Positions 29,348 to 60,908 of a DNA stretch of 64,000 bases are shown here, piece by piece (positions within the stretch are counted from its first letter, which is position 1; each line of letters opens with the position of its first letter). Location of the stretch: assembly GCA_965203575.1 (NCBI GenBank), contig OZ241894.1:2956322-3020321 (forward strand), written 5' to 3'. The DNA comes from Candidatus Aldehydirespirator sp. GTDB lineage: Bacteria; Actinomycetota; Acidimicrobiia; Acidimicrobiales; Aldehydirespiratoraceae. A model generated the notes under the pieces. It ran no database searches. It worked only from the letters and a program-made list of their open reading frames with translations, and was not told where the DNA came from. Both the position numbers and the translations under genes were made by a program.

Positions 29348-29424
29348 CTCCCTACGGCCGCCTCTCCTAGCTTCTCCTAGACTCCGGGGGTTCGTTTCCC
29401 TGGAAGGACCGCGCCATCGGACAG

Positions 29425-42927: not shown

Positions 42928-43177
42928 GGCGGCATCTCAGTGTCGGCGGCGGCGCTCGCAGTCAGCGCGAGAAGGTGGTCGGCGCTGATCAGACAATAGT
43001 CGCCTCGCGATACAAGAGCATGACGGCGAGAGTCGTCGGGGAAGAAGTCGGCCTCGAACCTCACGCCTCAGACCTGCGGGGCATCGAGCCGTTGTGCGCT
43101 AGGTGCTGTGCTGTGAGGTGCCGGCTTCGTGCCACGGTTGCATTATTGCCGCGACGGACGCTCCTAGGATCGTAGTC

Positions 43178-44005
43178 GTGAGCGATCCCGACCAGCAGTT
43201 GGTCGACCTAACGCAGCCCTCCCCGCCCGCCGCCTATCTCCGGGAGGTCTGGCGGAGACGGGACTTCGCCATCCTGGTCCCCGTCCAGGACCTTCGGGCC
43301 CAGAACATGGGCTCTGTGTTGGGCCAACTCTGGCATCTGCTCAACCCGGCGCTGATGGTCGCGGTCTACTTCCTGATCTTCGGACTGATCCTCGACACCA
43401 GCCGCGGCGTGGACAACTTCCTGGGCTTCCTCGTCGTCGGGGTGGTCTGGTTCCATCTCACGCAGCGGGTCGTGCAGGACGCCGCGGTGTCCATCCCCCG
43501 CAATCTGGGACTGATCCGGTCCGTGCAGTTCCCGCGGATCCTGCTGCCGGCGGCAGCCGTCATCGGCCAGACCGCCGCGTTCGTGCCCGCGCTCGTGTTG
43601 GCGCTGGCAGCAGTGATCGCCACCGGCGAACGTCCTTCGCTGCGGTGGCTGGCGCTGATCGGGGTGCTGGCCGCGCAGTTCGTGTTCAACTTCGGGGCAG
43701 CGCTTCTGGTGGCCCGCATCGGGGCGGCTGTGCCGGATGTGCGCCAGTTGCTGCCGCACGTGTTCAGGCTGCTGTTCTACGCCTCGGGCGTGATCTTCAG
43801 CGTCGATGCGTTCGTCACGAGCGAGTCCTGGCGGCGGGTGTTCGCCCTGAACCCGCTCTACGACGTGATCACCTGCGCCCGATGGTGCCTGCTCGGTGAA
43901 CCGGCCGACTCTTGGGCGGTGGCTGGAATGCTGGCGTGGGGCGCCGCGCTGCTGGTGGCCGGATTCGCGGTCTTCTGGAGATCCGACCAGCGGCTGGGGG
44001 CGTGA
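43178..44005 (+). CDS. ABC-2-type polysaccharide/teichoic-acid exporter permease (Wzm/TagG-like)
   Basis: ORF 43103..44005(+), probably starting at GTG 43178. Has the YLREVWRRRDFAILV N-terminal motif typical of ABC-2 permeases and 6 TM segments. Confidence 0.8.
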   Translation: MSDPDQQLVDLTQPSPPAAYLREVWRRRDFAILVPVQDLRAQNMGSVLGQLWHLLNPALMVAVYFLIFGLILDTSRGVDNFLGFLVVGVVWFHLTQRVVQDAAVSIPRNLGLIRSVQFPRILLPAAAVIGQTAAFVPALVLALAAVIATGERPSLRWLALIGVLAAQFVFNFGAALLVARIGAAVPDVRQLLPHVFRLLFYASGVIFSVDAFVTSESWRRVFALNPLYDVITCARWCLLGEPADSWAVAGMLAWGAALLVAGFAVFWRSDQRLGA

Positions 44006-44751
44006 TGGCTGCCGGTCGGGCTGTCACGGTGCGCGTGGACGATGCCCACGTCTACTACCGGGTGTACGAGGATCCGGCTGCGGGTATCAAGCAACTGTTC
44101 TCGAGCGGGCGGACCGGACGGCGTTACCAGACGATCCGGGCGGTGCGTGGCGTGAGCCTGGATCTCCACGAGTCCGAGACATTGGGCCTCATCGGGGCCA
44201 ACGGGTCGGGCAAGTCGACGCTATTGGCGGCCATGACCGGGCTGCTGCCGCTGGCATCCGGCACGATCCTAGGCCGGAGCAGGCCGTCGCTGCTGGGAGT
44301 GTCTGCCGCGCTGCGCTCTGCTCTCTCCGGCAGACGAAACATCCTGATCGGTGGGCTTGCCCTGGGCTTCACCCGAGCCGAGGTGGAGAGCCGCATGGAC
44401 GAGATCATCGACTTCGCCGGACTCCGCAACGCCATAGACCGGCCGTTGCGCACCTACTCGTCGGGGATGAGGGCTCGGCTGAACTTCGCGATCGCCACCG
44501 CCCGGATCCCCGACATCCTGTTGATCGACGAGGCGCTGTCCGTAGGGGACGAGGGTTTCCGGGCCCGCAGCGCCGAGCGCATCGACGAGGTGCGCTCGGC
44601 GGCCGGCTCCGTGGTTCTGGTGTCGCACAACATGGCGGAGATCGAGGGGTCCTGTGACCGCGTGGCATGGCTCGACGCTGGCACTCTTCGGGCGGTGGGT
44701 GAGCCGGGTGACGTCGTCGCCGCCTATCTGGCCTCCGACGCGGTGCGCTGA
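44005..44751 (+). CDS. ABC polysaccharide exporter ATP-binding protein (Wzt/TagH-like, short form)
   Basis: ATG 44005 overlaps the permease stop TGA 44003..44005. Walker A GANGSGKST, signature YSSGMRARL, Walker B LLIDEAL. No C-terminal carbohydrate-binding extension. Confidence 0.85.
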   Translation: MAAGRAVTVRVDDAHVYYRVYEDPAAGIKQLFSSGRTGRRYQTIRAVRGVSLDLHESETLGLIGANGSGKSTLLAAMTGLLPLASGTILGRSRPSLLGVSAALRSALSGRRNILIGGLALGFTRAEVESRMDEIIDFAGLRNAIDRPLRTYSSGMRARLNFAIATARIPDILLIDEALSVGDEGFRARSAERIDEVRSAAGSVVLVSHNMAEIEGSCDRVAWLDAGTLRAVGEPGDVVAAYLASDAVR

Positions 44752-45746
44752 TCCGGCCGCCGGCCGCGGCTGGTCCGGCCCGCCAGGAATCCCGCGCCCC
44801 AACAGATGTGCATCACCGCGAAGGCGGCTGCGGCCCGGGCCCGGTCGAGCCCGTCCCCCAGCGAGTCGCGCAGGCGGGTGGCGGCCACCGCGCAGGCCGC
44901 GGCATACAGCACCGGCAGGGCCGCGCCCCGCCAGCGTCCCAGGGCCAGTCCGAGCGCGGAGCACGCCAGACCAGCGGCCAGCGCGGGAGCGGCCAGCTGG
45001 CGGATGCGGAGCGACCGGGGATTGCGCACCAGCATGGTGCGCTTCCATGCGCCGTACGAGAAGTACTGGCGGGCGAGCCCCCGGTAGTCGGAGCGGGGCA
45101 CGTAGTCGACCACGAGGCTCGGATCGAGCCACACGGTGTGGCCCTGCTCGCGCAGCCGCCAGTTGAGCTCGTAGTCCTGGTTGCGTCCCAGGGTCTCGTC
45201 GAAGCCGCCGACGGACGCCAGCGCGTCGCGGCTGAACACGCCCAGATAGACGGTGTCGGCCGGTCCCGAGTGCCGGCCCCGGCGGAAGGCCGCAGGACCG
45301 CCGCCGAAGGCCGACCCCATCGCGGCCGCGATGGCGCCGGTCAGGTCGGCGTCGCCGACGGGGCGCTGCACACCGCCCACATTGGCTGCACCGGTGCGGG
45401 TCAGCGTGGACACGGCCCGTTCCAGGTAGTCGGGTGGGATCCGTGATTGAGCGTCTACCCGGGCCACGACGGTGCCCTTGGATGCTGCCACCGCAATGTT
45501 GAGGCCCGCCGCGGCGGTGCCCGCGGGATTCTCGACAACTTGCAGGGGCAGCCCGATGCAGCTACCGGCCAGTATCTGCTCGGTACCGTCGTGGCTGGGT
45601 CCAACCGCCACGGTCACGTCGATCGGCCCCCGATATGTCTGCGAACCGATAGCCGAGAGGCACTCCGGTATCAGCGCCGCGCAGTCCCGGGCCGGTACCA
45701 CCACCGAGATGTGCGGCAGGCGGTCATGGGCCCCTTCGGTGTTCAC
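44724..45746 (-). CDS. GT2-family glycosyltransferase with C-terminal TM segments
   Basis: 340-aa ORF with GTG start overlapping the upstream stop (GTGA). Motifs ISVVVPARD and RVDAQS, plus QDYELNWR. Confidence 0.8.
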   Translation of the reverse strand: MNTEGAHDRLPHISVVVPARDCAALIPECLSAIGSQTYRGPIDVTVAVGPSHDGTEQILAGSCIGLPLQVVENPAGTAAAGLNIAVAASKGTVVARVDAQSRIPPDYLERAVSTLTRTGAANVGGVQRPVGDADLTGAIAAAMGSAFGGGPAAFRRGRHSGPADTVYLGVFSRDALASVGGFDETLGRNQDYELNWRLREQGHTVWLDPSLVVDYVPRSDYRGLARQYFSYGAWKRTMLVRNPRSLRIRQLAAPALAAGLACSALGLALGRWRGAALPVLYAAACAVAATRLRDSLGDGLDRARAAAAFAVMHICWGAGFLAGRTSRGRRPDQRTASEAR

Positions 45747-47059
45747 CGGCCGGACCCTCGGGCCATCACGAGGAGGCTCTTCACCATGATCTCCCAGTCG
45801 AGCAACGGCGACCAGTTCACAACGTATTGCAGATCGTGACCGAGCTTGTAGGCGGCGTCCGTCTGGTAGTGACCCTGAGTCTGAGCCAGACCGGTTATGC
45901 CGGGAGGGATGTCGTGACGCCGGCCGTATCCGGCGATCTGCTCCTCGAGTCGGGCCACCAGCGCCGGTCGCTCGGCCCGGGGCCCGACCAGCGACATCTG
46001 ACCGGTGAGGACATTCCAGAGTTGCGGCAGCTCATCGAGCCGGCTCTGCCGGAGCCAGGCCACACCGGCGATCACCCTGGGATCGTCGGCGACGGCCAAC
46101 TCCGGCCCGGCCTGCTCGGCGTCCGGCGTCATGGTCCGGAACTTCACCATGACGAACGTCCGGCCCTCCATGCCCACCCGTTCCTGGCGGTAGAGCACGC
46201 CCCGACCCGCCCGCAGGCGCACATAGAGGGCGACTGCGAGCGTCAGCGGTATCGCGAACGGAGCCAGCACCAGCAGGTAGACGAGGTCGAGGAGGCGCTT
46301 GAACCGCAGCCGGCACGCGGGCAGGGCATGGGCTCGCAGCGCGACGAAGGGCATGCCGCCGATCTGGCGGGTGCGCTGAAGTCCCAGCAGGGTGTCGGAC
46401 GGCGTGATGCGCCGGTAGACCCCCACCTGGCGTCCCTCCAGCTCGGCGAGCGGCTCGGGATAGATGATGTCCAGCGACTGGCGCGACAGCAGCAGCAGAT
46501 CGGTGGCGGCGCACCGGTCCACCTCTGCGGCGACGTCGGAGAACGTGCCAGCCTGGCCGGCGATCTCGGTGGCCTGCCTCGACTCGGCCAGATGGCGCCG
46601 CGCCGAGTCCACATCGGCGGCGTCTCCCACCAGCAGCACGCGGGGACGCCCGAAACGGCGCATCCTCACTTGCCGGGCCAGCCAGCGGTTGAACGACACC
46701 ACGAGGCTCGCGGCCACGGCCAGGATCACGAGGTTGGCCCTGGGCATCAGGTAGCGGCCGCTGAGCAGCGACACGGTGGCGTCGGCCCCCACTGCCAGCA
46801 GGGTCAGCATCGTGGCTCGCGGCAGCCAGGGAGGCCGGCCGAGCCGCTGCTCGTACTCGTAGAGGCCGCCGAAGTAGTAGACGGCCATGTGCAGGCCGGT
46901 TGCCACCGCGAAGCCGACCGCATAGTGCGACAGCGGGTAGGTCGGCCAGTCGAGCCCGAAGCGGACCGTTGTGATCGCGACCATGAGCCCGAAGAGCGTG
47001 GTCGCGTCGATCAGGTACAGATAGCGGAATCCCAGTCTTCGCAGGAAGCCGGTCCTCAC
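45743..47059 (-). CDS. Polyprenyl-phosphate sugar-1-phosphate transferase (WbaP/ExoY bacterial sugar transferase family), priming enzyme
   Basis: ORF 45743..47641(-) trimmed to GTG 47059..47057, which overlaps the upstream stop (GTGA). N-terminal TM block and C-terminal catalytic motifs KFRTM and DELPQLWNVLTGQMSLVGPRAERP. Confidence 0.85.
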   Translation of the reverse strand: MRTGFLRRLGFRYLYLIDATTLFGLMVAITTVRFGLDWPTYPLSHYAVGFAVATGLHMAVYYFGGLYEYEQRLGRPPWLPRATMLTLLAVGADATVSLLSGRYLMPRANLVILAVAASLVVSFNRWLARQVRMRRFGRPRVLLVGDAADVDSARRHLAESRQATEIAGQAGTFSDVAAEVDRCAATDLLLLSRQSLDIIYPEPLAELEGRQVGVYRRITPSDTLLGLQRTRQIGGMPFVALRAHALPACRLRFKRLLDLVYLLVLAPFAIPLTLAVALYVRLRAGRGVLYRQERVGMEGRTFVMVKFRTMTPDAEQAGPELAVADDPRVIAGVAWLRQSRLDELPQLWNVLTGQMSLVGPRAERPALVARLEEQIAGYGRRHDIPPGITGLAQTQGHYQTDAAYKLGHDLQYVVNWSPLLDWEIMVKSLLVMARGSGR

Positions 47060-49035
47060 GGCGATCGCATCAGGGGCGGCAACGGCACGTCGAGGTCGAA
47101 CGCTCCCGGTGCCGCGGCCAGGTTCCACACCAGCATGGCCATCCGGGCTCGATCCACGTTGTCGCCGGGGTTGAATTCCGTCGGGCCGTCGCCGGGCGGC
47201 TGGAAGTCCGCGCCGATCCAGAGGCGATGCTCCACCAGCCATCGGACGGCCTCCAGGTAGAAGTCGTTGATCCCGATGTCGGTGAACGGCACGGGGTGGT
47301 TGCTGTAGGTGCGTCCGGCGAAGCGCCACAGGAAGGCCGCCAGCTGCGCGGCGTTGAGCCGATCGTTGGGACAGAACAGCGCTGAGCCGCCGCCGCATCC
47401 CAGAGTGATGCTCTGGTCCACCATCCACCCCACGGCCTGCGAGTAGAAGCTGTCGGGCTCGATGTCGTCGAAGGTCAGGGATCCGTCGGCCGACTGCGGC
47501 TCGCCCGCGAAGCGCCACAGGAACGTGGCGAACTGGGCTCGGGTCATCGAGCGCTCGGGAGAGAACGTCGTCGCCGTCGTGCCCTGGGTGATCTCCGTCT
47601 CGAGCATCCAGAGCACTGCTTCGGCGTAGGGAGCGTCCCATCGGACGTCGGTGAAGGGAAGCGTGTGGACGGTGTAGCCGTCGCCGGTGTGGGAGCCCTG
47701 CAGCGTCAGCTTGGTGGACAGCAGGGGACTGCAGCCGGGCGTGCGGCGGCAGCCCCGCACCAGGGCGAAGTAGAAGCGATAGCCGTACGGATCACCGTCC
47801 TCGTTGCGGACCTCCAGCGTGCGGTCCGATCCCACCAGGGTCACTAGGGCGTCGTCGATGCGGCCCGAGGGTCCGGGACCCGAGATGTAGATCTCCACTA
47901 TCTCGCCCACGTCCAAGTCGGCGAAGGGGTACTCCGCGAGCCACCCGCGGATCTGCTCGGCCGTGTAGGTGCGCTCCCAGGAGTGGTTGGCATTCTGGGG
48001 TTCGCCGTCGGCGTCGGGAGCGGCGTCGAAGGGGTCCGGCTTGGCCAGCAGGTACGGCACGGACTCCCGCCGGGGCTCCTCGTTGGCCGCCGTGTAGCCG
48101 CCGTTGGAGGAGCTGTAGTAGGCGACGATCACCTCGGGGTCGCCCCCGCCGGCCGGCTGGTGGGTGAGCACGGCATCGTCGGTGGCGCCCACCTGGCTCG
48201 CCCAGGCCTCGTGGCCGGTCTCGCTCTCGAAGTCCCAGGCCCTGTACTCCTGGTCCTGGGTCGAGGCGTAGAGGTCGAACGGCGAGGACCAGCGGGCCCG
48301 GCGCTCCATGGTGGCGACGGCGTAGCTGCGGGCCGCGACGGCCTGGGCCTTGAGGGCCTCCGCCGGCCAGCTGAGGGGCACCTCCTTGATGCCGTAGAGG
48401 TACTGCTGCATGGTCATGTCGCCGATCACGAGGCAGTACTGGTTGGAACTGGCGTTGCCGCAGTTGGCCACGCCTGCGGCGGCCGGGGTGAGCTGGAACT
48501 GCCCGTGCGCGTAGCGCTCGGCGCCGTTGCTCGTGCTGGAGACCCGGACGGCCTCGCCGTCGTTGAAGCCCACCGTCAGCACGGTCCCGCTGCAGAAGCC
48601 CCGGCACCAGTCGATGTTGCTGGAGTTGATGTGCCAGCCGCCGTCGCCGCGGCGCACGGTCAGCGTGTTGACGGTGGTGTCCAGGAACCGGCCGTCCATG
48701 GCCACGGTCAGCAGGCCTGAGGGTCTGAACACCGTCGTGTTGTGGACGGCGATGCGCACATCGACGTCGTCGGGCACCAGGCCTGGATCGGTCGTCAACG
48801 TGGTGCTGTCGTAGTAGAAGGCGAGGATCTCCTGGTAGGTGTGGCCCGCCTGCGCTCGCCCGAGGGCGCCGTACTGGCTCATACCGCTGCCGTGTCCCCA
48901 ACCCCCGCCGATGAAGGTGAACTCGTCATCGGATGGGCCGTGGGGGTGGGCTGCGGCCGGCGCGGCGAGAACCCCGGCGCAAACCGCAGCAGCCACTAGC
49001 AGGCCTACGAGCGAACGAATGGGATGGGAGGGCAT
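47056..49035 (-). CDS. Secreted SpoIID/LytB-domain protein with three C-terminal SLH repeats
   Basis: 659-aa ORF with a signal peptide. GGGWGHGSGMSQYGA and AQAVAARSYA...YYSSSNGGYT are SpoIID signatures. Three SLH-pattern repeats start at FTDVRWDAPYAEAVLWM, FDDIEPDSFYSQAVGWM and FTDIGINDFYLEAVRWL. Confidence 0.8.
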   Translation of the reverse strand: MPSHPIRSLVGLLVAAAVCAGVLAAPAAAHPHGPSDDEFTFIGGGWGHGSGMSQYGALGRAQAGHTYQEILAFYYDSTTLTTDPGLVPDDVDVRIAVHNTTVFRPSGLLTVAMDGRFLDTTVNTLTVRRGDGGWHINSSNIDWCRGFCSGTVLTVGFNDGEAVRVSSTSNGAERYAHGQFQLTPAAAGVANCGNASSNQYCLVIGDMTMQQYLYGIKEVPLSWPAEALKAQAVAARSYAVATMERRARWSSPFDLYASTQDQEYRAWDFESETGHEAWASQVGATDDAVLTHQPAGGGDPEVIVAYYSSSNGGYTAANEEPRRESVPYLLAKPDPFDAAPDADGEPQNANHSWERTYTAEQIRGWLAEYPFADLDVGEIVEIYISGPGPSGRIDDALVTLVGSDRTLEVRNEDGDPYGYRFYFALVRGCRRTPGCSPLLSTKLTLQGSHTGDGYTVHTLPFTDVRWDAPYAEAVLWMLETEITQGTTATTFSPERSMTRAQFATFLWRFAGEPQSADGSLTFDDIEPDSFYSQAVGWMVDQSITLGCGGGSALFCPNDRLNAAQLAAFLWRFAGRTYSNHPVPFTDIGINDFYLEAVRWLVEHRLWIGADFQPPGDGPTEFNPGDNVDRARMAMLVWNLAAAPGAFDLDVPLPPLMRSP

Positions 49036-49131: not shown

Positions 49132-50922
49132 TCAGCGGACGATCGCGATGGTGTCGCCGGCGCCCACCGAGTCGCCCACCTTCACCAGGATCTCGGCGAC
49201 TGTTCCGGAGCGGCCCGCGGCGATGTTGTTCTCCATCTTCATGGCCTCGAGCACGGCCACCGGCTGCCCGGCTCCCACTTCGTCGTCCACATCCACCAGC
49301 AGCTTGATGATCGTGCCCTGCATCGGGACGGTGACCTCCGCGGCGCCGCCGCCGAGACTCGCCGGCCCCCGGGCCCTCCGGCGCGATGCGCTCGGGCGCT
49401 CGGAGTCGTCGCCGTCGGCCTGCGGGGTCCACAGCGCGACGCTGAAGCGCTTGCCGTCCACCTCTGCCTCGATCTCATGGTGCACCCTGGATCCAACCGC
49501 ACTGGCGTCGGCACCGGTCGCCGACGGCGGCGACTCGGGCAGAGACGTGAAGTCGAGTCGTTCCTCCACCCAGCGCGTCGAGTGGGTCACCGACGCGAAG
49601 TCCGGGTGAGCCAGGATGGCTTGCGCGGCCGGGATGGTGGTCGCCACGCCGGTGATCCGCGTCTCGGACAGGGCCCGCAGCGCGCGGCTGATGGCGACGT
49701 CCCGGTCGCGGCCCCAAACGACGAGCTTGCCGATGAGGTTGTCGTAGTACGGGCTGATCCTGTCGCCCGCCTCGTAACCGCCGTCCCATCGGGTGGCGTA
49801 GCCCTGGGCGGGCCTCAGGTCGGTGACGGGTCCGGGGCAGGGGAGGAACGCGCCGCCGGCCGGATCCTCAGCGTTGACGCGCACCTCGATGGAGCAGCCG
49901 TCGATCGCGATGCCGGGCTGGGTGAGGGTCAGTGGCTCGCCGGCCGCGATCCGCAGCTGCAGCTCCACCAGGTCTACGCCGGTCACCATCTCGGTCACGG
50001 GATGCTCGACCTGCAGCCTGGTGTTCATCTCCAGGTAGTAGAACGAGCCGTCGGCGTAGAGGAACTCGACGGTGCCTGCGTTCACGTAGCCGCAGCCGCG
50101 GGCCACCGCCACCGCCGCCTCGCCCATCGCCTCCAGGACGGCCGGGTCGATCCTGGGCGCGGGCGCCTCCTCGATGAGCTTCTGATGCCGGCGCTGGGCC
50201 GAGCAGTCGCGGGTGCCGAGGTGCACGCAGTTGCCGTGGGCGTCGGCGAGCACTTGCACCTCCACGTGGCGGGCCAGGTCGAAGTAGCGCTCCATGTAGA
50301 GCTCGTCGCGCCCGAAGTAGGCGAGCGCCTCCCGCTGGGCCGACTCGACCGCGGCGGCCGCCTCCGCGGCCTGGTGCACCACCTTCATGCCCCGGCCCCC
50401 GCCCCCGTAGGCGGCCTTGACGGCCACGGGCCAGCCGTGGGCCGCACCGAAGGCCTCGACCTGGGCCGGGTCGACGATCGGCTCGGTGTTGCCCGGGACC
50501 GGTTCCACTCCGGCCCGGACGGCCGCCTCCCGGGCTGAGATCTTGTCGCCCATCACCTCGATCGCATCCGGCGGCGGTCCGATGAAGGTGACGCCCTGGG
50601 CGGCCACGGCGCGCGCGAAGTCGGCGTTCTCGCTGAAGAACCCGTAGCCGGGATGGACCGCGTCGGCACCGCTCCGCTCGATTGCGGCCACGATGGCATC
50701 GGTGCGGAGATAGCTCTCCGCGGCGGCCGTGCCGCCCAGCGAGTAGGCCTCATCCGCCAGGCGCACGTGCATCGCGCCCCGGTCCTCGTCGGAGTAGACG
50801 GCGGCCACCGCTATGCCCATCTCGCGGCAGGCTCGGATCACGCGGACCGCGATCTCGCCCCGATTGGCCACCAGCACCTTCGAGAAGGCGCGGGCAGATG
50901 ATGCTGCGTCGCTGTGAGGCAT
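49132..50922 (-). CDS. accA: Acyl-CoA carboxylase alpha subunit (biotin carboxylase + BCCP)
   Basis: 596-aa ORF with an ATP-grasp biotin carboxylase body and C-terminal biotinyl motif EAMKMEN. Confidence 0.9.
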   Translation of the reverse strand: MPHSDAASSARAFSKVLVANRGEIAVRVIRACREMGIAVAAVYSDEDRGAMHVRLADEAYSLGGTAAAESYLRTDAIVAAIERSGADAVHPGYGFFSENADFARAVAAQGVTFIGPPPDAIEVMGDKISAREAAVRAGVEPVPGNTEPIVDPAQVEAFGAAHGWPVAVKAAYGGGGRGMKVVHQAAEAAAAVESAQREALAYFGRDELYMERYFDLARHVEVQVLADAHGNCVHLGTRDCSAQRRHQKLIEEAPAPRIDPAVLEAMGEAAVAVARGCGYVNAGTVEFLYADGSFYYLEMNTRLQVEHPVTEMVTGVDLVELQLRIAAGEPLTLTQPGIAIDGCSIEVRVNAEDPAGGAFLPCPGPVTDLRPAQGYATRWDGGYEAGDRISPYYDNLIGKLVVWGRDRDVAISRALRALSETRITGVATTIPAAQAILAHPDFASVTHSTRWVEERLDFTSLPESPPSATGADASAVGSRVHHEIEAEVDGKRFSVALWTPQADGDDSERPSASRRRARGPASLGGGAAEVTVPMQGTIIKLLVDVDDEVGAGQPVAVLEAMKMENNIAAGRSGTVAEILVKVGDSVGAGDTIAIVR

Positions 50923-52791: not shown

Positions 52792-53535
52792 GTGAGCGCC
52801 TCGGACGGCTGCCTGTCGGTGGTAATGCCCTGCTACAACGAGGTCGCCACCATCGACGAGATCGTCTCCAGGGTGCTTGCCAGCCGCTTCACCGGCGAGC
52901 TGATAGTGGTGGACGACGGTTCGACCGACGGAACGCGCCGTCGGCTGTCCCAATACGACGATCCCCGGGTGAGGGTCCTGCCGCAGCCCGAGAACCGCGG
53001 GAAGGGCGCCGCGGTGCGGCGGGGCTTCGTCGAGGCGAGCCGTGAATTCGTGGTGATCCAGGACGCCGACCTTGAGTACGACCCCGGCGACTGGGAGGCG
53101 CTGCTGGCGCCTCTGGCGCGCGGCGACGCCGACGTGGTGTACGGGACCCGTATGCAGGAAGGCCCGGAGCACAGGGTGCCGTACTACTGGGCCATGATCT
53201 GCAACCGGATGCTGACACGACTGTCGAACATGCTCACCGGTCTGTGGCTGACCGATGTGGCGACCTGCTACAAGGCGTTCCGCCTCGAGGTCGTGCGGTC
53301 CCTCGACCTGCGCGAGAACCGCTTCGGGATCGACACGGAGATCACCGCGAAGGTGGCCGCCGGAGGTTGGCGCATCTGGGAGACCGGCATCTCCTACACG
53401 AGCAGGAACTACGCTGAAGGCAAGAAGATCACATGGAAGGACGGCATCGCCGTCTTCGTGTGCATCGTTCGCTACGGGGTCTCCGTACGCCTTCGCCCGT
53501 TGGTCCAATCGGCGAGGACTTCGAGAATCTCCTGA
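52792..53535 (+). CDS. GT2 polyprenyl-phosphate sugar synthase-like glycosyltransferase (DPM1/GtrB/ArnC-like)
   Basis: 247-aa ORF with GTG start. Motifs VVMPCYNE, VVDDGSTDGT and QDADLEYDP. Confidence 0.8.
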   Translation: MSASDGCLSVVMPCYNEVATIDEIVSRVLASRFTGELIVVDDGSTDGTRRRLSQYDDPRVRVLPQPENRGKGAAVRRGFVEASREFVVIQDADLEYDPGDWEALLAPLARGDADVVYGTRMQEGPEHRVPYYWAMICNRMLTRLSNMLTGLWLTDVATCYKAFRLEVVRSLDLRENRFGIDTEITAKVAAGGWRIWETGISYTSRNYAEGKKITWKDGIAVFVCIVRYGVSVRLRPLVQSARTSRIS

Positions 53536-54623
53536 GACGGGCTTGACTGCGGCAGCCTCCGAGCGCGCCGGAAGCGTTCGGGGTCCGCCAGGAACGCTTC
53601 CACCACTCCGGGGTCGTAGCGGCTCAGCACGGCGTTCTCACCGAGGCCGTCGGCCCGGTCGGTCCGGTCTCGCCACAGCAGCACGGGCACCCCCAGCAGC
53701 GCGCACTCCTCCTGGATGGAGCCTCCGTCGGTGATCGCGAACGGCGCCCCTGCGAGCGCCCTCACGAACTCGGCGTAGGGGAGCATCGGCACAAGCTCCA
53801 CGCCGGAGGCTTCAAGGCCGGCCAGATCCGCGGACCTGAGCGCCCGACGTGTGGGCTCGTGCACGTACCAGCGCACCGGGGTCGTCTGCGCCAGCCGCGT
53901 GATCGTATGCACCAGCGCCTGTCTCCGCCGTCGCCGGTGCAGGTTCTCCACCCGGTGCATGGTCACCACCACGGGGCGTGGCCGGCGCGGCGAGCTGTGC
54001 GAGCGAGCGCCTCCCGACATGTCGAGCGTGGTCGGCATGCCTGCATCGCCCGGATCCAGGGCGGCGCGGAGCGCATCGCTGATCGTGTTGGACGATCCAG
54101 TGATGATCCGCCCTCTCACCCGGCGCTTGCGCAGTTCCTCGGCTGCCGCGCCGTCTGGCGCGAAGAGCAGGTCGGCGAGCCTGTCGACGGCGACCCGGAC
54201 GATCTCCTCCGGAAATGGGTGCAGCCACCGGTGGGTGCGAAGGCCCGCCTCGACATGGGCCAGTGCCAGCCCGGCGCGCTTCGCCATGAGCGCGCCGATC
54301 AGCGTCGTCGGCGTGTCGCCGTGAACCACGCATATCCCCGGGCGCCCGCCGAAGACGGTTCGGTTGAGCCGCCTCCGCAGCGCCAGCCTGCGGCCGAGTC
54401 CCGCCGCCCACCACAGAGCAGCAGGCACCGAGTCGACGCTGCGCGCGCCCCCCATCGTGTAGTCGGGCGCCCGCAAGCCCAGCTCGTCGCGGAACGATTC
54501 CGACCGGTCGGCGTGCTGCCCGGAGTCGATCAGACGGTAGGGGAGGCCGGCCGACTCCATGCGCCACAGCAGGGGCGCCATCTTGATGTACTCGGCTTGG
54601 GTGCCGACGAGGACGTGGATCAA
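53472..54623 (-). CDS. UDP-N-acetylglucosamine 2-epimerase family protein (WecB/MnaA-like)
   Basis: ORF 53472..55580(-) trimmed to TTG 54623..54621, which overlaps the upstream stop (TTGA). Motifs VLVGTQAEYIKM, VHGDTPTT and HVEAGLRT. Confidence 0.75.
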   Translation of the reverse strand: MIHVLVGTQAEYIKMAPLLWRMESAGLPYRLIDSGQHADRSESFRDELGLRAPDYTMGGARSVDSVPAALWWAAGLGRRLALRRRLNRTVFGGRPGICVVHGDTPTTLIGALMAKRAGLALAHVEAGLRTHRWLHPFPEEIVRVAVDRLADLLFAPDGAAAEELRKRRVRGRIITGSSNTISDALRAALDPGDAGMPTTLDMSGGARSHSSPRRPRPVVVTMHRVENLHRRRRRQALVHTITRLAQTTPVRWYVHEPTRRALRSADLAGLEASGVELVPMLPYAEFVRALAGAPFAITDGGSIQEECALLGVPVLLWRDRTDRADGLGENAVLSRYDPGVVEAFLADPERFRRARRLPQSSPSQEILEVLADWTNGRRRTETP

Positions 54624-55675
54624 GGCTCCGTGCCATCCGAACGCTGCACCGGATCCGCTTCGACCGCCGTGCGCCTCGTGGCGAGGAGCTCCGAGACGGC
54701 CGCGGCCAGCAGGTCGCGCAGCAGCAACACCAGCCTGAAGCCGAATATCAATAGGCCGAGAGCCAGAGGATCGGCTGCGCCGAGCAGCGACGGGACGGTT
54801 ACCTCCACCACGCCGATCCCCTGCGGCGCGATCACAGAGAGGAATCGAAGGCCCCCCCAAGTGAGCACGAAAGCACCGGCGAGCCGGGCCGTGGAGAAGC
54901 CGTCGGCGGCCTCGAAGGCGCGCATGTACAGGCAGAACACGGCGGCTGCCCAGGTCCAGTAGCAGGCCGATGCCGCGATCATGTGCAGATAGCCCGGCCA
55001 TGTGAATCCGCTGACCGGGGCCAGGCTGTCCAGGTCGCGTCGCCGCGCCACCGCCGCGACGACACGTCCCGCCACCGAGGGCGAAGCAGCGACGATCACC
55101 CCGACCGCGGAGACGATCGGGATTGCAAGGCCTCCGGGCAGTTCGCCGGCCCAGCCGAGCAGCACCAGGCCATAGGCCACCGAGACGGCGAGGCTCACCG
55201 CCATCTCGAGCGCAGCGGTGAGGGCGAGAGGCGCCGCCGGAACGCCGCGGCGCTGCATCAGAGCCACGCGGCTGACCGCGAACGTGACCATCAGCGGCAC
55301 GTACCTGGCCGGCAGGGAACGAGCCGCGGTGGCGGTCAGATCGCGGAAGAGCGGGCGCTGGCCGAGCAAGCGCAGGCTCACGAGCCAGAAGTACGCACTC
55401 AGCGCTATCAGCACGAACCCCGTCGCGAACGACGCCGCCACGAGCACATGCCTCGCACCTGCGAGGTCTCCGAGAAGGTCGGCCACTTCGTCCCGGCGCG
55501 CCAACACCACCACGGGCACCGCGACGGCGAGCAGGGAGAGGTATGCGATCCTCAGCCACTTCAGAAGGCGTCGCTGCCACGGGCGGCCTGTCATCGGACT
55601 AGCGGCAAGAGGCCCGCCGGGAGTCGCGCGACGCGTGGCCGAGACAGTAGCCGACGGCTTGACGCGCCTCATCAA
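54620..55675 (-). CDS. UPF0104 / LPG-synthase-TM-type (flippase-like) membrane protein
   Basis: 351-aa polytopic ORF. The start is uncertain (an alternative Met precedes TGRPWQRRLL). The family call is from general appearance. Confidence 0.5.
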   Translation of the reverse strand: MMRRVKPSATVSATRRATPGGPLAASPMTGRPWQRRLLKWLRIAYLSLLAVAVPVVVLARRDEVADLLGDLAGARHVLVAASFATGFVLIALSAYFWLVSLRLLGQRPLFRDLTATAARSLPARYVPLMVTFAVSRVALMQRRGVPAAPLALTAALEMAVSLAVSVAYGLVLLGWAGELPGGLAIPIVSAVGVIVAASPSVAGRVVAAVARRRDLDSLAPVSGFTWPGYLHMIAASACYWTWAAAVFCLYMRAFEAADGFSTARLAGAFVLTWGGLRFLSVIAPQGIGVVEVTVPSLLGAADPLALGLLIFGFRLVLLLRDLLAAAVSELLATRRTAVEADPVQRSDGTEP

Positions 55676-55744
55676 GCGGCTGGGGCGACGGGTCGGAGGG
55701 GCGGCCGCGACTGGCTCAACTTGGCTCGACGCTCCGTCAGCAGG

Positions 55745-56941
55745 TCACTGGATCAGCTCAAGCAGATCGTCGAGCGCAGCGTCGTTGACCTTCAGGCGCG
55801 CCCGCAGCAAGCCGCGTGCCTCGGCTGCCCGGTGCGACTTGTCCTGCGCCTCGTTAGCCGCGTCGATGAGCGTGCGGGGCTCGAAGCGGCCGGCGTCGAG
55901 CGGAGCCAAGTCGACGAGTGAGGCCCAGCCGCCGCCTTCAGCGGCGAGCGACTTCATTTTCGGAGAGTAGTCCAGCACCACCGCCGCCTGGCCGTTGAGC
56001 AGAGCTGCGATGGCGCCGTGATAGCGCATGGTGACCACGAAGCGACTCCGGGCGACCTCGGCGAGCACATTGTCGATGTTGAGCGTCACCAGCTCTGCGT
56101 CCGTTCTCAGCCTCTGTCGCAGCGCCGCGAGCATGGGGGTGTCCTGGCTCGGCTGAAAGGGCAACAGGCGCAACGTCATGCCGCTGCGCTCGGCCAGTGC
56201 GTCCAGGGATCGCGCCAGTTGATCCGTCCATGGCTGCCAGGACGTGCGGGCCTTCGCCGCAGCCGTGCGGATGCCCCGGCGATTCGGGGGGCGCAGGATC
56301 ACGCAGATCGTGTCGGTGGAGTCGCTGCGAGAGCGCGTCGAGCCCGTCGGCTTCGGCGGGCGCGGGTGCGGCGGTCGGGCCGCGGCCGCCCGGCTCGAAA
56401 CGAGCGCGGCGTCTCCGGCCAGCACCGGGTCGGCGCCGATCGCCACGTCGGGCACGCCCCAGTCGCGCAGGCGTCGCGCCGAGTCGGCGTCTCTCGTCAC
56501 GACGTTGCAGGCCCGGCGCATCTCCGCGACCGCCATGCGCCGGCTGCCGGCGCCCCGGACGCGTCCCGCTCCCAGGCCGATGGCCGCGACCGCGGCCCGC
56601 GGTCGGCGGGTGGACGGAGCCGGCACCGACCGCCTGTAGGCGCGAAGGCGTGACATATGGAACCACATGTTCCACGGCGACGTCTCCGACTGCACCACCC
56701 CTCCGGAGAGGACCATGGCGTGCGCACTGCACAGCGACCGGCGCAGCGCTGCGCTGTCCAGGGGCGAGCGATGAACCACCGCCTCAACCCCATGGACGGC
56801 GGCAGTCCGCTCGGGATCGATTGACACGGCTATCGGCTCCACCCCCCGGGCACGCAGGGCGGCGGCCATGCAACTCAGAATCATCTCATCTCCCAAGTTG
56901 TCCGACCCGTACCAACCGGCAAGGGCGATCCTCAGGGCCAT
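55745..56941 (-). CDS. csaB: Polysaccharide pyruvyl transferase, CsaB-like
   Basis: ORF 55745..58546(-) trimmed to ATG 56941..56939. N-terminus RIALAGWYGSDNLGDEMIL matches the CsaB/PS_pyruv_trans pattern, and C-terminal MRYHGAIAAL also fits. Confidence 0.7.
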   Translation of the reverse strand: MALRIALAGWYGSDNLGDEMILSCMAAALRARGVEPIAVSIDPERTAAVHGVEAVVHRSPLDSAALRRSLCSAHAMVLSGGVVQSETSPWNMWFHMSRLRAYRRSVPAPSTRRPRAAVAAIGLGAGRVRGAGSRRMAVAEMRRACNVVTRDADSARRLRDWGVPDVAIGADPVLAGDAALVSSRAAAARPPHPRPPKPTGSTRSRSDSTDTICVILRPPNRRGIRTAAAKARTSWQPWTDQLARSLDALAERSGMTLRLLPFQPSQDTPMLAALRQRLRTDAELVTLNIDNVLAEVARSRFVVTMRYHGAIAALLNGQAAVVLDYSPKMKSLAAEGGGWASLVDLAPLDAGRFEPRTLIDAANEAQDKSHRAAEARGLLRARLKVNDAALDDLLELIQ

Positions 56942-57040
56942 CCTGCAGTCTCCCAAGTGCTTGTCAAGCCGTGATTCTATCGTGTGCCGGGAATCGGGCT
57001 CTTTCGCGGATTCTCCACCGAAAGGCGGGCATCGCACAGA

Positions 57041-57859
57041 ATGTGTCCCGTGGGATCGGTCACGCCGCGGTCGCCGTCGGCCGCCAAGCACCTGCCGCTC
57101 GGCTGCGCGGCAGCCCGCCGCGCGGGGCTGGGCGAGCTGCGCCACGCGGTCGCGACGGGCTCCACGAACGATGATCTGGCCCAGGAGGCCCGGCTCGGGG
57201 AGCGGTCGCCGGCGGTCCTGGTGGCCGATCACCAGACCGCGGGAAGGGGTCGGCTGGGGCGTCGCTGGTCCGACGCGGCCACCGGCCCCCACGCCGGTGG
57301 GGCGTCGCTGCTTGTCAGTTTCCGGCTTGAGGCGTCCGTGGCCAGGGCCTTCGACCGAACCGCCGCGGTCTCGGCCGCCGCGCTCCTGGCCGCGTCGGGC
57401 ACGCTCGCAGACGGGGGAGCGGCGGTGCGGGCCAAGTGGCCCAACGACTTGCTCATCGAGTCCCGGGACGCGTCCGGCAAGGTGGCGGGCGTGCTGTCGG
57501 AGATTGTCGACGGCGATCCCCCGTTGGTGGTGGTGGGTCTGGGCCTGAATGTCGCGGAGGCGCCCCCGGAGCCGGGAGCGGTCTCGCTCGCTCAGGCGGG
57601 CGGCACCGCTACCCGCGATGAGATTCTGGCGTCGCTGATCGACGCCCTGCCCGGCTACCTGGCCGACTCCAGGCGGGCTCGCGAGGACCTGAGGGCTGCG
57701 TCGGCGACGCTGGGGAGGGAAGTGAGGGTGCAACGCACCGACGGCACATCGATCGTGGGCACGGCCGTCGATATCGACAGTTCTGGCCGCCTGGTCGTCG
57801 CCGGGGCTTCCGGCGAGGTCGCGATCGACGCTGGAGACGTGTTCCACCTGCGTTCTTGA
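57041..57859 (+). CDS. birA: Biotin-[acetyl-CoA-carboxylase] ligase (class I, no HTH)
   Basis: ORF 56984..57859(+). Motifs GRGRLGRRW and KWPNDL. The start (ATG 57041) is uncertain. Confidence 0.85.
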   Translation: MCPVGSVTPRSPSAAKHLPLGCAAARRAGLGELRHAVATGSTNDDLAQEARLGERSPAVLVADHQTAGRGRLGRRWSDAATGPHAGGASLLVSFRLEASVARAFDRTAAVSAAALLAASGTLADGGAAVRAKWPNDLLIESRDASGKVAGVLSEIVDGDPPLVVVGLGLNVAEAPPEPGAVSLAQAGGTATRDEILASLIDALPGYLADSRRAREDLRAASATLGREVRVQRTDGTSIVGTAVDIDSSGRLVVAGASGEVAIDAGDVFHLRS

Positions 57860-57910
57860 CGGTGTGAGGCCCTCGATCATCCAAAGGGCACAGGGGGACC
57901 GGCGGTACGC

Positions 57911-59584
57911 TTGGCTGCCGTGACCGACCAAGGCAAGCCGCGCTTGAGGCGTACTTGGCCGCAGCGCCTGGTGGTGGTCGCGAGCCTCCTGGTGATCGTC
58001 TCGGCCGTGGCGTCGGCGAGGACCGTGCAGTACGTCGAGGAGGTCTGGCACGAGTTCAAGCCGGTGTACTTCCGCGACACCGTCCAGTACGGCCGCGACC
58101 TGCTCGTCACCGACACCGAGCCGGGCGAACCCGTCAATTTCCTCCTCGTCGGCATCGACAGCAGCATCGACGTCCGGCCGGACGCCGAGGCCGACGGCGC
58201 GGGCGGCGTCGCGGCGGGCGGGAGGGCTCTGGCCGACGTCATCATGCTCGTGCGCCTGGACCCCGGGGCGAAGTCCGCGTGGGTCTTGTCCATACCGCGG
58301 GACCTGTGGGCCGAGATCCCGGGAGCGCAGGACCACAAGATCAACTCCGCACTGCTCATCGGCGGCGCCCCGCTGCTGGTGGCGACCGTCAGATCCATGT
58401 TCGATGTGGAGATCAACCACTATGTCGAGATGGACTTCGCGGGGTTCGAGCAGGTCGTGGACACGCTCGGGGGAGTGCCCGTCTGGTTCCCCAATCCGGC
58501 CCGTGATCCCAAGTCCAAGCTGAACATCGAGACGCCGGGATGCCATGTGCTCGGAGGCGAGCAGGCGTTGCAGTACGTGCGGAGCCGCACATACACGGAG
58601 TTCATCGACGGGCGCTGGAGGATCACCGGCGGCGACGACTTCAGTCGCATCGCCCGCCAGCAGGACTTCCTGGTGCTCGCCCTCGACCGGGCCATCAGCC
58701 GCGGGGCCAGGAACCCGACCACCATCGTCGGCATGATCGAGGCCGGAGCCGCCTTCGTCGCGTTCGACCAGGACGTGACCCTCGGCGAGCTGGTGTCACT
58801 GGCCCAGGACTTCTCGGACTTCAACCCCGAGAACCTGCAGAGACAGCGACTCGAGGTCTACACGCTGTTCTGGCCCGACGGCCGCTACAAGGGCGAGGCG
58901 GCATACCGGCAGGCGAACGAGCCGACCCTCGACGTCTTCCGGGGGGAGGCGGACTCGTTGAGTCCCTCCGAGGTGTCGTTGACCGTCGCCGGGTTCAACG
59001 ACTTCAGCCGCGAGGACGCGTCCGCGTCGCTGGCCGGCGAGGGCTTCGACGTACAGGGGTCCCTCTCGTCTCCAGCCATTCCCGAGACCGTCGTGCTGCA
59101 CGGTCCCGACGACGCCAAGGCGGCCATGACTGTGGCCCGCTACCTCGAGCCGGTGCCCTACGTCGTGGCCGACGACGGGGTCGACGGCGTGGTGGTGGTG
59201 CTCGGCGCCGACTACCGCGGGGTGCTGTTCGCCTTCCAGGAGCCCATGAGCGTGGTGCGCGACCAGGTACGGGCTCGCGGCATCCCTCCGGTCCGGCCCG
59301 ATCCGGTCGCGGGGTTCTCTCCGGTGGCCACCGGCAGTGCTGCACCGGTGCCGGCCACTTCCGGGGCGGCCTTCGTCGGAGGTCCGGTGGGTGCGAGTGC
59401 CGCCATGGCCGGTCCGCGCATCCTGGGAGCCGTGCTGACGGGAGGTCCGGCGACCTTGGGAGCGGCGTTGGCCGGGGGTTCCGTGGCTGGGGGCGCCGAC
59501 TTCGTCGCCGCGCAATCGACTGAGACGGATGCCGACCCGGTCACCATCCTGGGCCGTCCGCCCGAGGGCGAGTCCTGTGGCTGA
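57911..59584 (+). CDS. LytR-CpsA-Psr (LCP) family glycopolymer-peptidoglycan ligase with a LytR_C-like domain and Gly/Ala-rich tail
   Basis: 557-aa ORF with an N-terminal TM anchor. LCP motifs FLLVGIDS, DVIMLVRL and SIPRDLW. Confidence 0.85.
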   Translation: MAAVTDQGKPRLRRTWPQRLVVVASLLVIVSAVASARTVQYVEEVWHEFKPVYFRDTVQYGRDLLVTDTEPGEPVNFLLVGIDSSIDVRPDAEADGAGGVAAGGRALADVIMLVRLDPGAKSAWVLSIPRDLWAEIPGAQDHKINSALLIGGAPLLVATVRSMFDVEINHYVEMDFAGFEQVVDTLGGVPVWFPNPARDPKSKLNIETPGCHVLGGEQALQYVRSRTYTEFIDGRWRITGGDDFSRIARQQDFLVLALDRAISRGARNPTTIVGMIEAGAAFVAFDQDVTLGELVSLAQDFSDFNPENLQRQRLEVYTLFWPDGRYKGEAAYRQANEPTLDVFRGEADSLSPSEVSLTVAGFNDFSREDASASLAGEGFDVQGSLSSPAIPETVVLHGPDDAKAAMTVARYLEPVPYVVADDGVDGVVVVLGADYRGVLFAFQEPMSVVRDQVRARGIPPVRPDPVAGFSPVATGSAAPVPATSGAAFVGGPVGASAAMAGPRILGAVLTGGPATLGAALAGGSVAGGADFVAAQSTETDADPVTILGRPPEGESCG

Positions 59585-59600
59585 GGGGGACGTGCCGGCG

Positions 59601-60908
59601 ATGCCCGCCGAGGGCACCGGGAGGCCCGCCGCTCCGGCCGCGGTCGTCGTTGTCGGGGCGGGATACGTAGGTCTGACCACCGCGGCGTGTCTGGCTCGAC
59701 TGGGCCACCGCGTGGTCTGCACCGATGTGGACGAGCACAGGATCATCGGACTGCAGAGCGGCGAGATGCCGATCCACGAGCCGGGGCTGGCCGAGTTGGT
59801 GAGGACCGGCCTCGACACGGCCCGGCTCTCCTTCGTGTGCGGTTCGGCTGAGGCTGCGGCCCGAGCCGACTTCGTCTTCCTGTGCGTGCCCACGCCCTCG
59901 GGCCCTGACGGCGGCACCGACCTCGGCTACCTGGAGGCCGCGGTCGCCGAGATCGGTCCGAGCTTGCGGCCGGGGGCGGTGGTGGTGAACAAGTCCACTG
60001 CTCCGGCGGGCACCGTGCAGCTGCTGGCTCGAGTGCTGGGACGGGCCGACGTCTCGGTGGCATCCAATCCCGAGTTCCTGAGACAGGGCTCGGCCGTTCA
60101 CGACTTCCTCAATCCTGATCGGTTGGTGGTGGGCGCGGCCGACGCCGCGGTGGCCGAGCGGGTGGCCGGTCTCTACGCGGGCATAGATGCGCCTGTTCTC
60201 GTCACCGACCCAGCCTCCGCCGAGACGGTCAAGTACGCGGCCAACGCCTTCCTGGCGACGAAGCTGTCGTTCTCGAACTCGGTCGCGGCGCTCTGCGAGG
60301 CGGTGGGCGCCGATGTCGACGACGTGCTGGAGGGCATGGGATACGACGGGCGGATAGGCCGCGACTACCTGCGGCCCGGGCCGGGATGGGGCGGCTCGTG
60401 CCTTCCCAAGGACACGCGTTCGCTGGTCGCGATGGCCTCGGCAGCGGGCTACGACTTCGCGCTGCTGCGAAGCGTGGTGGATGCCAATGAAGCGCAGTTC
60501 GCCAGGATCGTCGACAAGGTCGCAGGCCGGGTTGAGCTGTCCGGGGCCTGCATCGCGCTGCTCGGCCTGGCCTTCAAGGCCGGTACCGACGACCTGCGAG
60601 ACTCGCCCTCCCTGGAGATTGCCAGACGCCTGGTCGAGGCCGGAGCGGTGGTCCGTGCCTACGATCCGATGATCAACGCCTGCGCAGCCACCGTGCAGGC
60701 CGGTGTGGCTGTTGCGGACGACGTCTACGCGGCCTGCGACGGCGCTTCCGCGCTGGTGGTCGCGACCGAGTGGGACGAGTTCCGGCAACTCGATCTCGAC
60801 CGGGTGGCGGGGGTCATGCACGAACTGCACGTGATCGACGCCCGCAACCTGCTGGACCGCGACGAGCTGGAGCGCCGCGGCTTCACCTACAGCGGCATCG
60901 GCGTGTGA
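59601..60908 (+). CDS. ugd: UDP-glucose 6-dehydrogenase
   Basis: ORF 59529..60908(+) trimmed to ATG 59601. Motifs VVGAGYVGL, NPEFL and catalytic GGSCLPKD. Confidence 0.88.
   Translation: MPAEGTGRPAAPAAVVVVGAGYVGLTTAACLARLGHRVVCTDVDEHRIIGLQSGEMPIHEPGLAELVRTGLDTARLSFVCGSAEAAARADFVFLCVPTPSGPDGGTDLGYLEAAVAEIGPSLRPGAVVVNKSTAPAGTVQLLARVLGRADVSVASNPEFLRQGSAVHDFLNPDRLVVGAADAAVAERVAGLYAGIDAPVLVTDPASAETVKYAANAFLATKLSFSNSVAALCEAVGADVDDVLEGMGYDGRIGRDYLRPGPGWGGSCLPKDTRSLVAMASAAGYDFALLRSVVDANEAQFARIVDKVAGRVELSGACIALLGLAFKAGTDDLRDSPSLEIARRLVEAGAVVRAYDPMINACAATVQAGVAVADDVYAACDGASALVVATEWDEFRQLDLDRVAGVMHELHVIDARNLLDRDELERRGFTYSGIGV

Follow-up and report, generated by a model that had tools for sequence, protein, structure and literature searches.

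A csaB-UPF0104-epimerase gene module probably linked to SLH protein anchoring in a sponge-associated member of the Acidimicrobiia

We describe a trio of adjacent genes in a 64 kb stretch of DNA (G000:C1:2956322-3020321, hereafter the window) from a single-contig genome of 3.93 Mb and about 70% GC, whose proteins have near-identical counterparts in metagenome-assembled genomes of sponge-associated Acidimicrobiia, the closest named records being those of 'Candidatus Aldehydirespirator sp.'. The trio encodes a CsaB-like ketal-pyruvyl transferase, an MprF-flippase-like membrane protein of the UPF0104 group and a divergent UDP-N-acetylglucosamine (UDP-GlcNAc) 2-epimerase (Table 1). We consider it likely that these genes belong to a pathway in which pyruvylation anchors SLH proteins, and we favor, with somewhat less assurance, the interpretation that the trio is a conserved module making a pyruvylated amino-sugar epitope recognized by the SLH proteins of this bacterium. 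The SLH/CsaB principle is known, and earlier literature mentions it for 'a few examples within Actinobacteria'. The gene set reported here is a variant without TagO and TagA, in which the epimerase is linked to csaB and an MprF-type candidate lies between the two.

The only pyruvyl transferase gene, the only Epimerase_2 gene, and the only strong LCP ligase gene of the genome all lie within 6 kb of one another in the window. A frame plot of third-position GC content (GC3) backs the epimerase, the membrane protein, the csaB-like gene, and the LCP gene on the strands given in Table 1, as well as the gene order of the locus.

Conservation of the gene trio

The locus scan, which used one genome per GTDB species and searched six-frame open reading frames (ORFs), gave 56 actinobacterial and 4 gammaproteobacterial loci. 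The csaB gene lies directly upstream of the UPF0104 gene, on the same strand, at 55 of the 56 actinobacterial loci, and the epimerase gene lies directly downstream of it at 53. The orientation of the epimerase differs between two clades: in the close clade (at least 81% identity) it shares the strand of the other two genes, and in the distant clade (38-49%) it is convergent. The same arrangement is seen on metagenome contigs with homologues of 38-50% identity, where csaB is followed on the same strand by a UPF0104-like gene and then immediately by a convergent Epimerase_2 gene. Adjacency by chance can be dismissed, as the pairing persists among proteins as little as 38% identical and the epimerase is still adjacent after the change of strand. 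The four gammaproteobacterial loci (26-31% identity) have neither csaB nor the epimerase.

Two genome samples were used to follow the genes further, 151 genomes from the class and, separately, 61 genomes from the family of the window itself. The UPF0104 subfamily is found in 17 of the family genomes at 273-320 bits, namely all of genus g1, all three of g85, and all four of g86, and it abuts csaB in every one of the 17. In the other eight genera, csaB is 33-41% identical to that of the window, and weak UPF0104 matches (42-88 bits) are found in only three genomes, none of them adjacent to csaB. The family also contains two types of Epimerase_2 protein, a canonical WecB-like type (287-376 bits) that is unlinked to csaB and a divergent type (139-196 bits) that nearly always adjoins csaB, even in genera devoid of UPF0104.

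In five such genomes (G160, G173, G180, G189, and G197), csaB and the divergent epimerase are immediate convergent neighbors without an intervening UPF0104 gene. It looks as if csaB and the divergent epimerase are the older core, with the UPF0104 gene placed between them in one subclade, which suggests that this gene was either inserted into an older csaB-epimerase pair or lost from it. In several relatives, two paralogous csaB/UPF0104 modules, one of the close type and one of the distant type, occur together, at the paired loci L014 and L038, L046 and L060, L047 and L049, and L026 and L032. Contig CBDCOH010000002.1 carries two copies of the module about 30 kb apart, and the window genome carries one.

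The CsaB-like pyruvyl transferase

The 398-aa enzyme matches PS_pyruv_trans (PF04230) with 91.1 bits, against a cut-off of 25.3, along the whole profile (positions 1-280 of 280). Residues R150, R217, R306-Y-H308, and K328 are invariant in an alignment of 29 homologues, as is Y11. In CsaB of Paenibacillus alvei, R148, R207, R306, H308, and K328 were identified as essential or as binding phosphoenolpyruvate (PEP). R150, R306, H308, and K328 of the present enzyme correspond to R148, R306, H308, and K328 of the P. alvei enzyme, which are needed for PEP binding, a correspondence that was drawn from motif, numbering, and the primer-encoded N-terminus rather than from a full-length alignment. When the N-terminus of P. 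alvei CsaB encoded by a published primer, MASKATRIVLSGYYGF, is aligned with our sequence, the acceptor residue Tyr14 falls on Tyr11, and Phe16 on Ser13.

Among the NCBIfam models, CsaB is the sole meaningful match of this enzyme, the one other listed being a Sir2 deacetylase model at E=0.073. Together with the PEP-binding residues and Tyr11, this match is suggestive of a place in the CsaB subfamily rather than among transferases of the exopolysaccharide type. A sequence search of the PDB with the protein gave no match up to E=10.

The UPF0104 membrane protein

The sequence of the membrane protein itself has no Pfam match up to E=10 and no NCBIfam match up to E=0.1, and its assignment comes from its relatives and its predicted fold. 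Nine of its 12 aligned relatives match PF03706 (LPG_synthase_TM). When 1.84 billion representative proteins were searched with a profile, 524 clusters came up at E<=1e-10, and PF03706 is matched by 52 of the 61 subfamily members that were aligned (best E=1.4e-16). In this 61-sequence alignment, whose mean identity is 30%, an A-P-Q-G-x-G-V-x-E motif near the C-terminal end and subsequent Arg and Asp residues are invariant or nearly so. The AlphaFold (AF2) model (pLDDT 77.9, pTM 0.76) has as its top six PDB fold matches only MprF structures (7duw, 9goe, 9j8q, 9j8s, 7f47, and 6lvf; probability 1.00, TMq 0.54-0.63), all remaining matches having a TM of at most 0.27.

The predicted fold and these relatives place the protein, as a divergent member, in the MprF-flippase (PplT) superfamily. 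The UPF0104 label that the initial annotation had given it thus holds, whereas the start codon proposed there probably does not: homologues are 324 aa long and begin at Met27, which makes a start at 55597 likelier than one at 55675.

UPF0104 proteins are predicted or shown to be lipid translocators and occur fused to or beside glycosyltransferases of family 2 (GT2) and of the GT-C type, and published analyses predict UPF0104 domains to act as flippases in glycosylation. An archaeal UPF0104 domain forms the C-terminus of the Dol-P-hexose synthase AglD, with PMT/STT3-like genes as neighbors, and GpgF is a UPF0104 partner in glycolipid synthesis (gpgSDF). Distant members of the subfamily studied here (about 30% identity) directly follow a GT2 gene in sugar-modification clusters, whose other genes include either a large membrane protein or a GT-C of the YfhO type. 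At locus L032, the UPF0104 gene is found beside a GT-C gene, with no csaB.

The MprF-flippase fold, together with this habit of sitting beside GT2 and GT-C genes, strengthens the idea of a flippase that had been raised in the initial annotation. We would place the role of the protein as translocator of a lipid-linked intermediate at slightly under an even chance. The protein is not a general partner of csaB, as discussed below.

Two loci on JGI metagenome contigs, L067 and L069, hold distant members of the subfamily in dTDP-sugar modification clusters with isomerase, aminotransferase, and formyl- or methyl-transferase genes. There, a GT2 gene stands on either side of the UPF0104 gene, which also adjoins the gene for an unannotated protein of 638-666 aa.

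The epimerase and the LCP ligase

The epimerase matches Epimerase_2 (PF02350) with 168.3 bits, against a cut-off of 30.6, and is the one protein of this family in the whole genome. The model of the hydrolyzing enzyme NeuC reaches only 18.6 bits. The stop codon of the membrane-protein gene overlaps the start of the epimerase gene in a TTGA, as read in the sequence. At its 3' end, the epimerase gene shares 64 bp with the convergent GT2 gene (53472-53535), and its C-terminal 50 or so residues align to neither the Epimerase_2 nor the WecB profile.

The LCP ligase combines a LytR_cpsA_psr domain (PF03816, 122 bits against 24.6) with a LytR_C domain and also lies above the cut-off of TIGR00350 (120.8 bits against 62.3). 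It is the only strong LCP gene found in the genome census, and its synteny with the trio is kept in about 13 close relatives. The family assignments made for the csaB-like gene, the overlapping epimerase gene, and the LCP ligase in the initial annotation were all borne out.

SLH proteins and their distribution

The genome census gave 30 SLH domain matches in about 19 ORFs. The SpoIID/LytB-domain protein of the window, correctly singled out before as a clear SLH protein, has one Pfam SLH match. With an SLH profile built from the domains of this genome, three repeats are recovered, at residues 460-505, 521-568, and 584-634, with the motifs TRAQ, NAAQ, and DRAR. Across the genome, the SLH repeats bear motifs of the TRAQ, TRAE, or TRGQ type. 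The Arg of the TRAE-type motif contacts pyruvate in solved complexes.

A second protein, encoded at 32563-34776 on the minus strand and formerly described as SLH-like, is not confirmed as such, being a Trypsin_2/HtrA-like secreted protease with no Pfam SLH match and 10.6 bits with the lineage SLH profile. Its N-terminal region contains two repeats of about 78 aa with FHPDQRLSKGWFGVL and F(D/V)DL...FKRDALNCLA segments, which faintly resemble a permuted SLH repeat.

SLH domains are present at E<=1e-7 in all 61 family genomes, 49 of which have a homologue of the window csaB, and were not found in any sampled genome from other families of the same order. The gain or retention of SLH is sharply specific to this lineage within the order. 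In the class sample, a pyruvyl transferase is found in 33 genomes, SLH in 17, and both in 13, and the four SLH-positive genomes without the transferase are all fragmented assemblies. SLH genes also lie near the module, on the same contigs, in the relatives G066, L012, L013, L040, and L057.

Proposed pathway

The pathway that we propose builds on what is shown here, namely the protein families and predicted folds, the number of copies of each gene, the count of SLH proteins, and the conserved gene linkage. The divergent 2-epimerase would turn UDP-GlcNAc into UDP-N-acetylmannosamine (UDP-ManNAc), and ManNAc, the presumable acceptor sugar, would be attached, on the cytoplasmic side of the membrane, to an acceptor linked to polyprenyl phosphate. 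On the same side, the CsaB-like enzyme would transfer ketal pyruvate from PEP to the lipid-linked ManNAc, a stage of pyruvylation that we assume by analogy with P. alvei CsaB. The MprF-flippase-like UPF0104 protein might then carry the anionic, pyruvylated, lipid-linked intermediate across the membrane. The glycan would end on a wall polymer, primed by the WbaP/WcaJ-type transferase of the window, which is likely its initiating enzyme, and fixed to peptidoglycan by the neighboring LCP ligase. SLH trimers would finally dock on this polymer, for example that of the SpoIID-SLH protein, a presumed client.

Several observations weigh against this interpretation. Two of the enzymes fall short of their specific models: the CsaB-like enzyme scores 143.3 bits with the CsaB model TIGR03609, under the equivalog cut-off of 213.1, which leaves its subfamily placement unproven, and the epimerase scores 163.6 bits with the wecB model TIGR00236, under the cut-off of 210.15. 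At the level of the class, 20 of the 33 transferase-positive genomes are without SLH, and the Pfam domain PS_pyruv_trans alone is therefore not diagnostic of SLH anchoring. Within the family, 12 of the 61 SLH-positive genomes are without a homologue of the window csaB. UPF0104 is not adjacent to csaB in 8 of the 11 genera of this SLH-rich family, and other SLH-positive Acidimicrobiia, such as genome G023, lack it too, so that it is neither generally required nor a general partner of csaB.

Alternative translocators exist as well, in the form of a Wzm/Wzt exporter and a weak MOP-like gene in the window and of a GtrA-like gene elsewhere. Since MOP-like genes, a GtrA-like gene, and a Wzm/Wzt pair are all present, naming the UPF0104 protein as the flippase by elimination was rejected. 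The weak MOP-like gene, at 29371-30699 on the plus strand and about 24 kb from the trio, has sub-threshold matches to Polysacc_synt (22.9 bits) and Polysacc_synt_3 (16.6 bits) and is a possible alternative flippase.

A last point on this side concerns the acceptor. In P. alvei, csaB is transcribed as a unit with tagA and tagO, and CsaB needs the lipid-linked disaccharide ManNAc-GlcNAc-PP-lipid (PP, pyrophosphate). The TagA/WecG family (PF03808), which rings in Bacillus, Synechococcus, Thermus, Deinococcus, and Thermotoga controls, has no match in our genome, and no TagO was found, the only PF00953 protein being MraY (303 bits with TIGR00445, whose cut-off is 192); as the genome searches were pre-filtered and the genome is 95.6% complete, a family not found is not thereby proven absent. 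With neither TagO nor TagA found, ManNAc-GlcNAc-PP-undecaprenol, the characterized acceptor of CsaB, could not be made in the known way, and the route is not the Firmicute one. TagA is found in only three of the 61 family genomes. Since the family is SLH-rich throughout while TagA is rare in it, and since no TagO was found in this genome, the textbook Firmicute route to pyruvylated ManNAc (Pyr-ManNAc) cannot be the only one. The rarity of TagA across the family also led us to reject a complementary distribution, in which TagA would be present where the UPF0104 partner is missing.

Taken as a whole, the proposal of the initial annotation that this organism uses the CsaB/SLH anchoring principle is supported. 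The transferase groups suggestively with CsaB, further SLH proteins are present in the genome, and the linkage of UPF0104 with csaB recurs in other species.

Alternative interpretations

The first alternative is a refinement of the proposed pathway rather than a contradiction of it. The GT2 next to the epimerase would make polyprenyl-P-ManNAc, which CsaB would pyruvylate in the cytoplasm, the UPF0104 protein would flip this Pyr-ManNAc monophosphate lipid in the role of GtrA or ArnE/F, and the neighboring ArnT-fold GT-C would graft the sugar, outside the cell, onto a polymer exported by the Wzm/Wzt transporter.

The GT2 best matches the polyprenyl-phosphate sugar synthases AglJ (121 bits) and PpgS (82 bits) among NCBIfam models, with ArnC lower (46.5 bits) and all three under their cut-offs, and it adjoins the trio at every close-clade locus with enough flanking sequence. 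In the AF2 model of the GT-C (pLDDT 70), ArnT (5ezm and 5f15), AftA, OST/PglB, and PMT come out on top with a probability of 1.00. The GT-C gene is syntenic in about 15 close relatives, and in the distant clade a GT2 gene and a GT-C-like gene flank csaB at about 11 loci. The distant subfamily members flanked by a GT2 on one side and by a large membrane protein or a GT-C of the YfhO type on the other, the UPF0104 gene of L032, and the archaeal fusion to AglD point in the same direction. With neither TagA nor TagO found, the PP-linked disaccharide that usually serves as acceptor would not be available, and the Wzm/Wzt exporter could handle the backbone.

Nevertheless, about 25 loci, roughly half of those with the trio, are without either a GT2 or a GT-C gene within 6 kb, the GT2 matches of the distant clade show generic similarity (72-78 bits), and the confidence of the GT-C model is moderate, its structural matches having a TMq of 0.34-0.45. 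Moreover, polyprenyl-monophosphate sugars are not known as substrates of any pyruvyl transferase, whereas P. alvei CsaB was shown to act on a PP-linked disaccharide. We regard this route as rather doubtful. If true, it would amount to a TagO/TagA-independent, extracytoplasmic installation of the SLH-docking epitope, and the UPF0104 protein would be the first bacterial stand-alone member of its group with an assigned glycan-lipid cargo.

A second alternative, which we consider unlikely, is that the UPF0104 protein does not move a glycan but ties the soluble CsaB and epimerase to the membrane as a tether or scaffold, or that it is a merely co-expressed phospholipid scramblase. CsaB and the epimerase have no membrane segments and yet must act on a lipid-linked acceptor. 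The flippase domains of MprF bind their synthase partners physically, and Escherichia coli PplT binds many lipid enzymes. Other genera run csaB and the epimerase without UPF0104, as shown above. On the other hand, the conserved A-P-Q-G-x-G-V-x-E motif with its Arg and Asp suggests an active translocation site, not a passive anchor, and the subfamily recurs beside GT2 and GT-C genes, a setting that calls for a flippase step.

Finally, the transferase might act on a capsule, an exopolysaccharide, or a glycolipid that has nothing to do with SLH docking, with the SLH domains binding something else and their co-occurrence being a lineage effect. This would fit the sub-cut-off CsaB score, the SLH-negative genomes with PS_pyruv_trans, the SLH-positive family genomes without this csaB, and the UPF0104 partners known from glycolipid synthases, but is quite improbable given that this is the sole pyruvyl transferase in a genome with so many SLH proteins, that CsaB is its only meaningful curated-family match, that it is tied to a ManNAc-type epimerase beside the only strong LCP ligase, that SLH genes lie near the module in five relatives, and that the SLH repeats retain the pyruvate-binding Arg motif.

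Comparison with known systems

The system described here shares with the SLH/CsaB pathways of P. alvei and Bacillus anthracis a PS_pyruv_trans enzyme in which the PEP-binding residues agree, a UDP-GlcNAc 2-epimerase, an LCP ligase, and many SLH-trimer proteins with TRAE/TRAQ-type motifs. It differs from them in gene organization and in several components. Whereas P. alvei has a csaB-tagA-tagO operon with MnaA, and B. anthracis has csaA-csaB, in our genome no TagA was found, MraY is the only PF00953 protein, and the likely priming enzyme is of the WbaP/WcaJ type. The epimerase is physically linked to csaB, in contrast to mnaA, which lies elsewhere in P. alvei, and the partner membrane protein has the MprF-flippase fold instead of the Wzx/MOP fold. 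An ABC exporter, a GT2 and GT-C pair, and a high-GC actinobacterial host further set the present system apart. We take the candidate translocator gene beside csaB to occupy the position that csaA holds in B. anthracis.

With the MprF flippase domain and the UPF0104/PplT proteins (E. coli YbhN, Pseudomonas aeruginosa GpgF, and the C-terminus of archaeal AglD), the membrane protein has in common the predicted fold, relatives that match PF03706, a stand-alone form of about 320 aa, and a place beside enzymes that build a lipid-linked head group. Unlike them, its own sequence falls under every Pfam and NCBIfam threshold, and its partners are a pyruvyl transferase and an epimerase, a pairing absent from the published UPF0104/PplT architectures and neighborhoods that were compared. 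Its presumed cargo is a polyprenyl-linked anionic sugar, not a phospholipid.

The three-component systems GtrB/GtrA/GtrC, CsbB/GtcA/YfhO, ArnC/ArnEF/ArnT, and mycobacterial PpgS with Rv3779 resemble the window and the close clade in the clustering of a polyprenyl-P-sugar-synthase-like GT2, a small polytopic membrane protein, and a GT-C. In the present locus, the cluster additionally includes a pyruvyl transferase and an epimerase, and the flippase candidate has a fold of the MprF type and not of the GtrA or SMR type. About half of the trio loci have neither the GT2 nor the GT-C gene.

The organisms of this sponge-symbiont family are uncultured. A trio that is kept through gene rearrangements offers a concrete gene with which to ask both how the lipid-linked, pyruvylated precursor of SLH-binding wall polymers crosses the membrane and what stand-alone UPF0104/PplT proteins carry.

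Gene neighborhood

The genes surrounding the trio, from the exporter to the nucleotide-sugar genes beyond the LCP ligase, are listed in Table 1. Scans for promoters and terminators in the locus gave nothing above shuffled controls.

Table 1 Genes of the trio and its surroundings in the window, with the evidence for each assignment.
Feature	Position	Strand	Evidence
Wzm-like permease	43103-44005	+	NCBIfam
TagH/Wzt-like ATPase	43912-44751	+	NCBIfam 168 bits; Pfam ABC_tran match
GT2	44724-45746	-	
WbaP/WcaJ-type polyprenyl glycosylphosphotransferase (likely priming enzyme)	45743 to ~46954	-	Bac_transf E=3.8e-55; TIGR03025 288.5 bits
Secreted SpoIID/LytB-domain protein with C-terminal SLH trimer	47056-49035	-	Pfam SpoIID and SLH
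Biotin carboxylase with biotin carboxyl carrier protein (BCCP)	49132-50922	-	
GT-C fold membrane glycosyltransferase, ArnT-like, 544 aa	51094-52728	-	PMT_2 E=1.2e-4, under cut-off; AF2 fold
GT2, polyprenyl-phosphate-sugar-synthase-like (AglJ/PpgS/ArnC type)	52792-53535	+	PF00535 E=9.5e-34
Epimerase_2, divergent non-hydrolyzing-type UDP-GlcNAc 2-epimerase, 383 aa	53472-54623	-	PF02350 E=2.7e-49
MprF-flippase-like membrane protein (UPF0104/LPG_synthase_TM/PplT), 325 aa from Met27	54620-55597 (alternative TTG start 55675)	-	Relatives and predicted fold
CsaB-like ketal-pyruvyl transferase, 398 aa	55745-56941	-	PF04230 E=1.5e-25
BirA (biotin ligase)	56984-57859	+	
LCP glycopolymer-peptidoglycan ligase with LytR_C domain	57911-59584	+	PF03816 E=3.1e-35; PF13399
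UDP-glucose dehydrogenase	59529-60908	+	
Membrane protein, mannose-1-P guanylyltransferase-like gene, and GalE, in this order	beyond 60908		

Biotin genes are embedded in this glycan locus, with no evident reason for the association. BirA lies between csaB and the LCP gene, and the biotin carboxylase/BCCP gene comes after the GT-C, an order that is kept in many close relatives.

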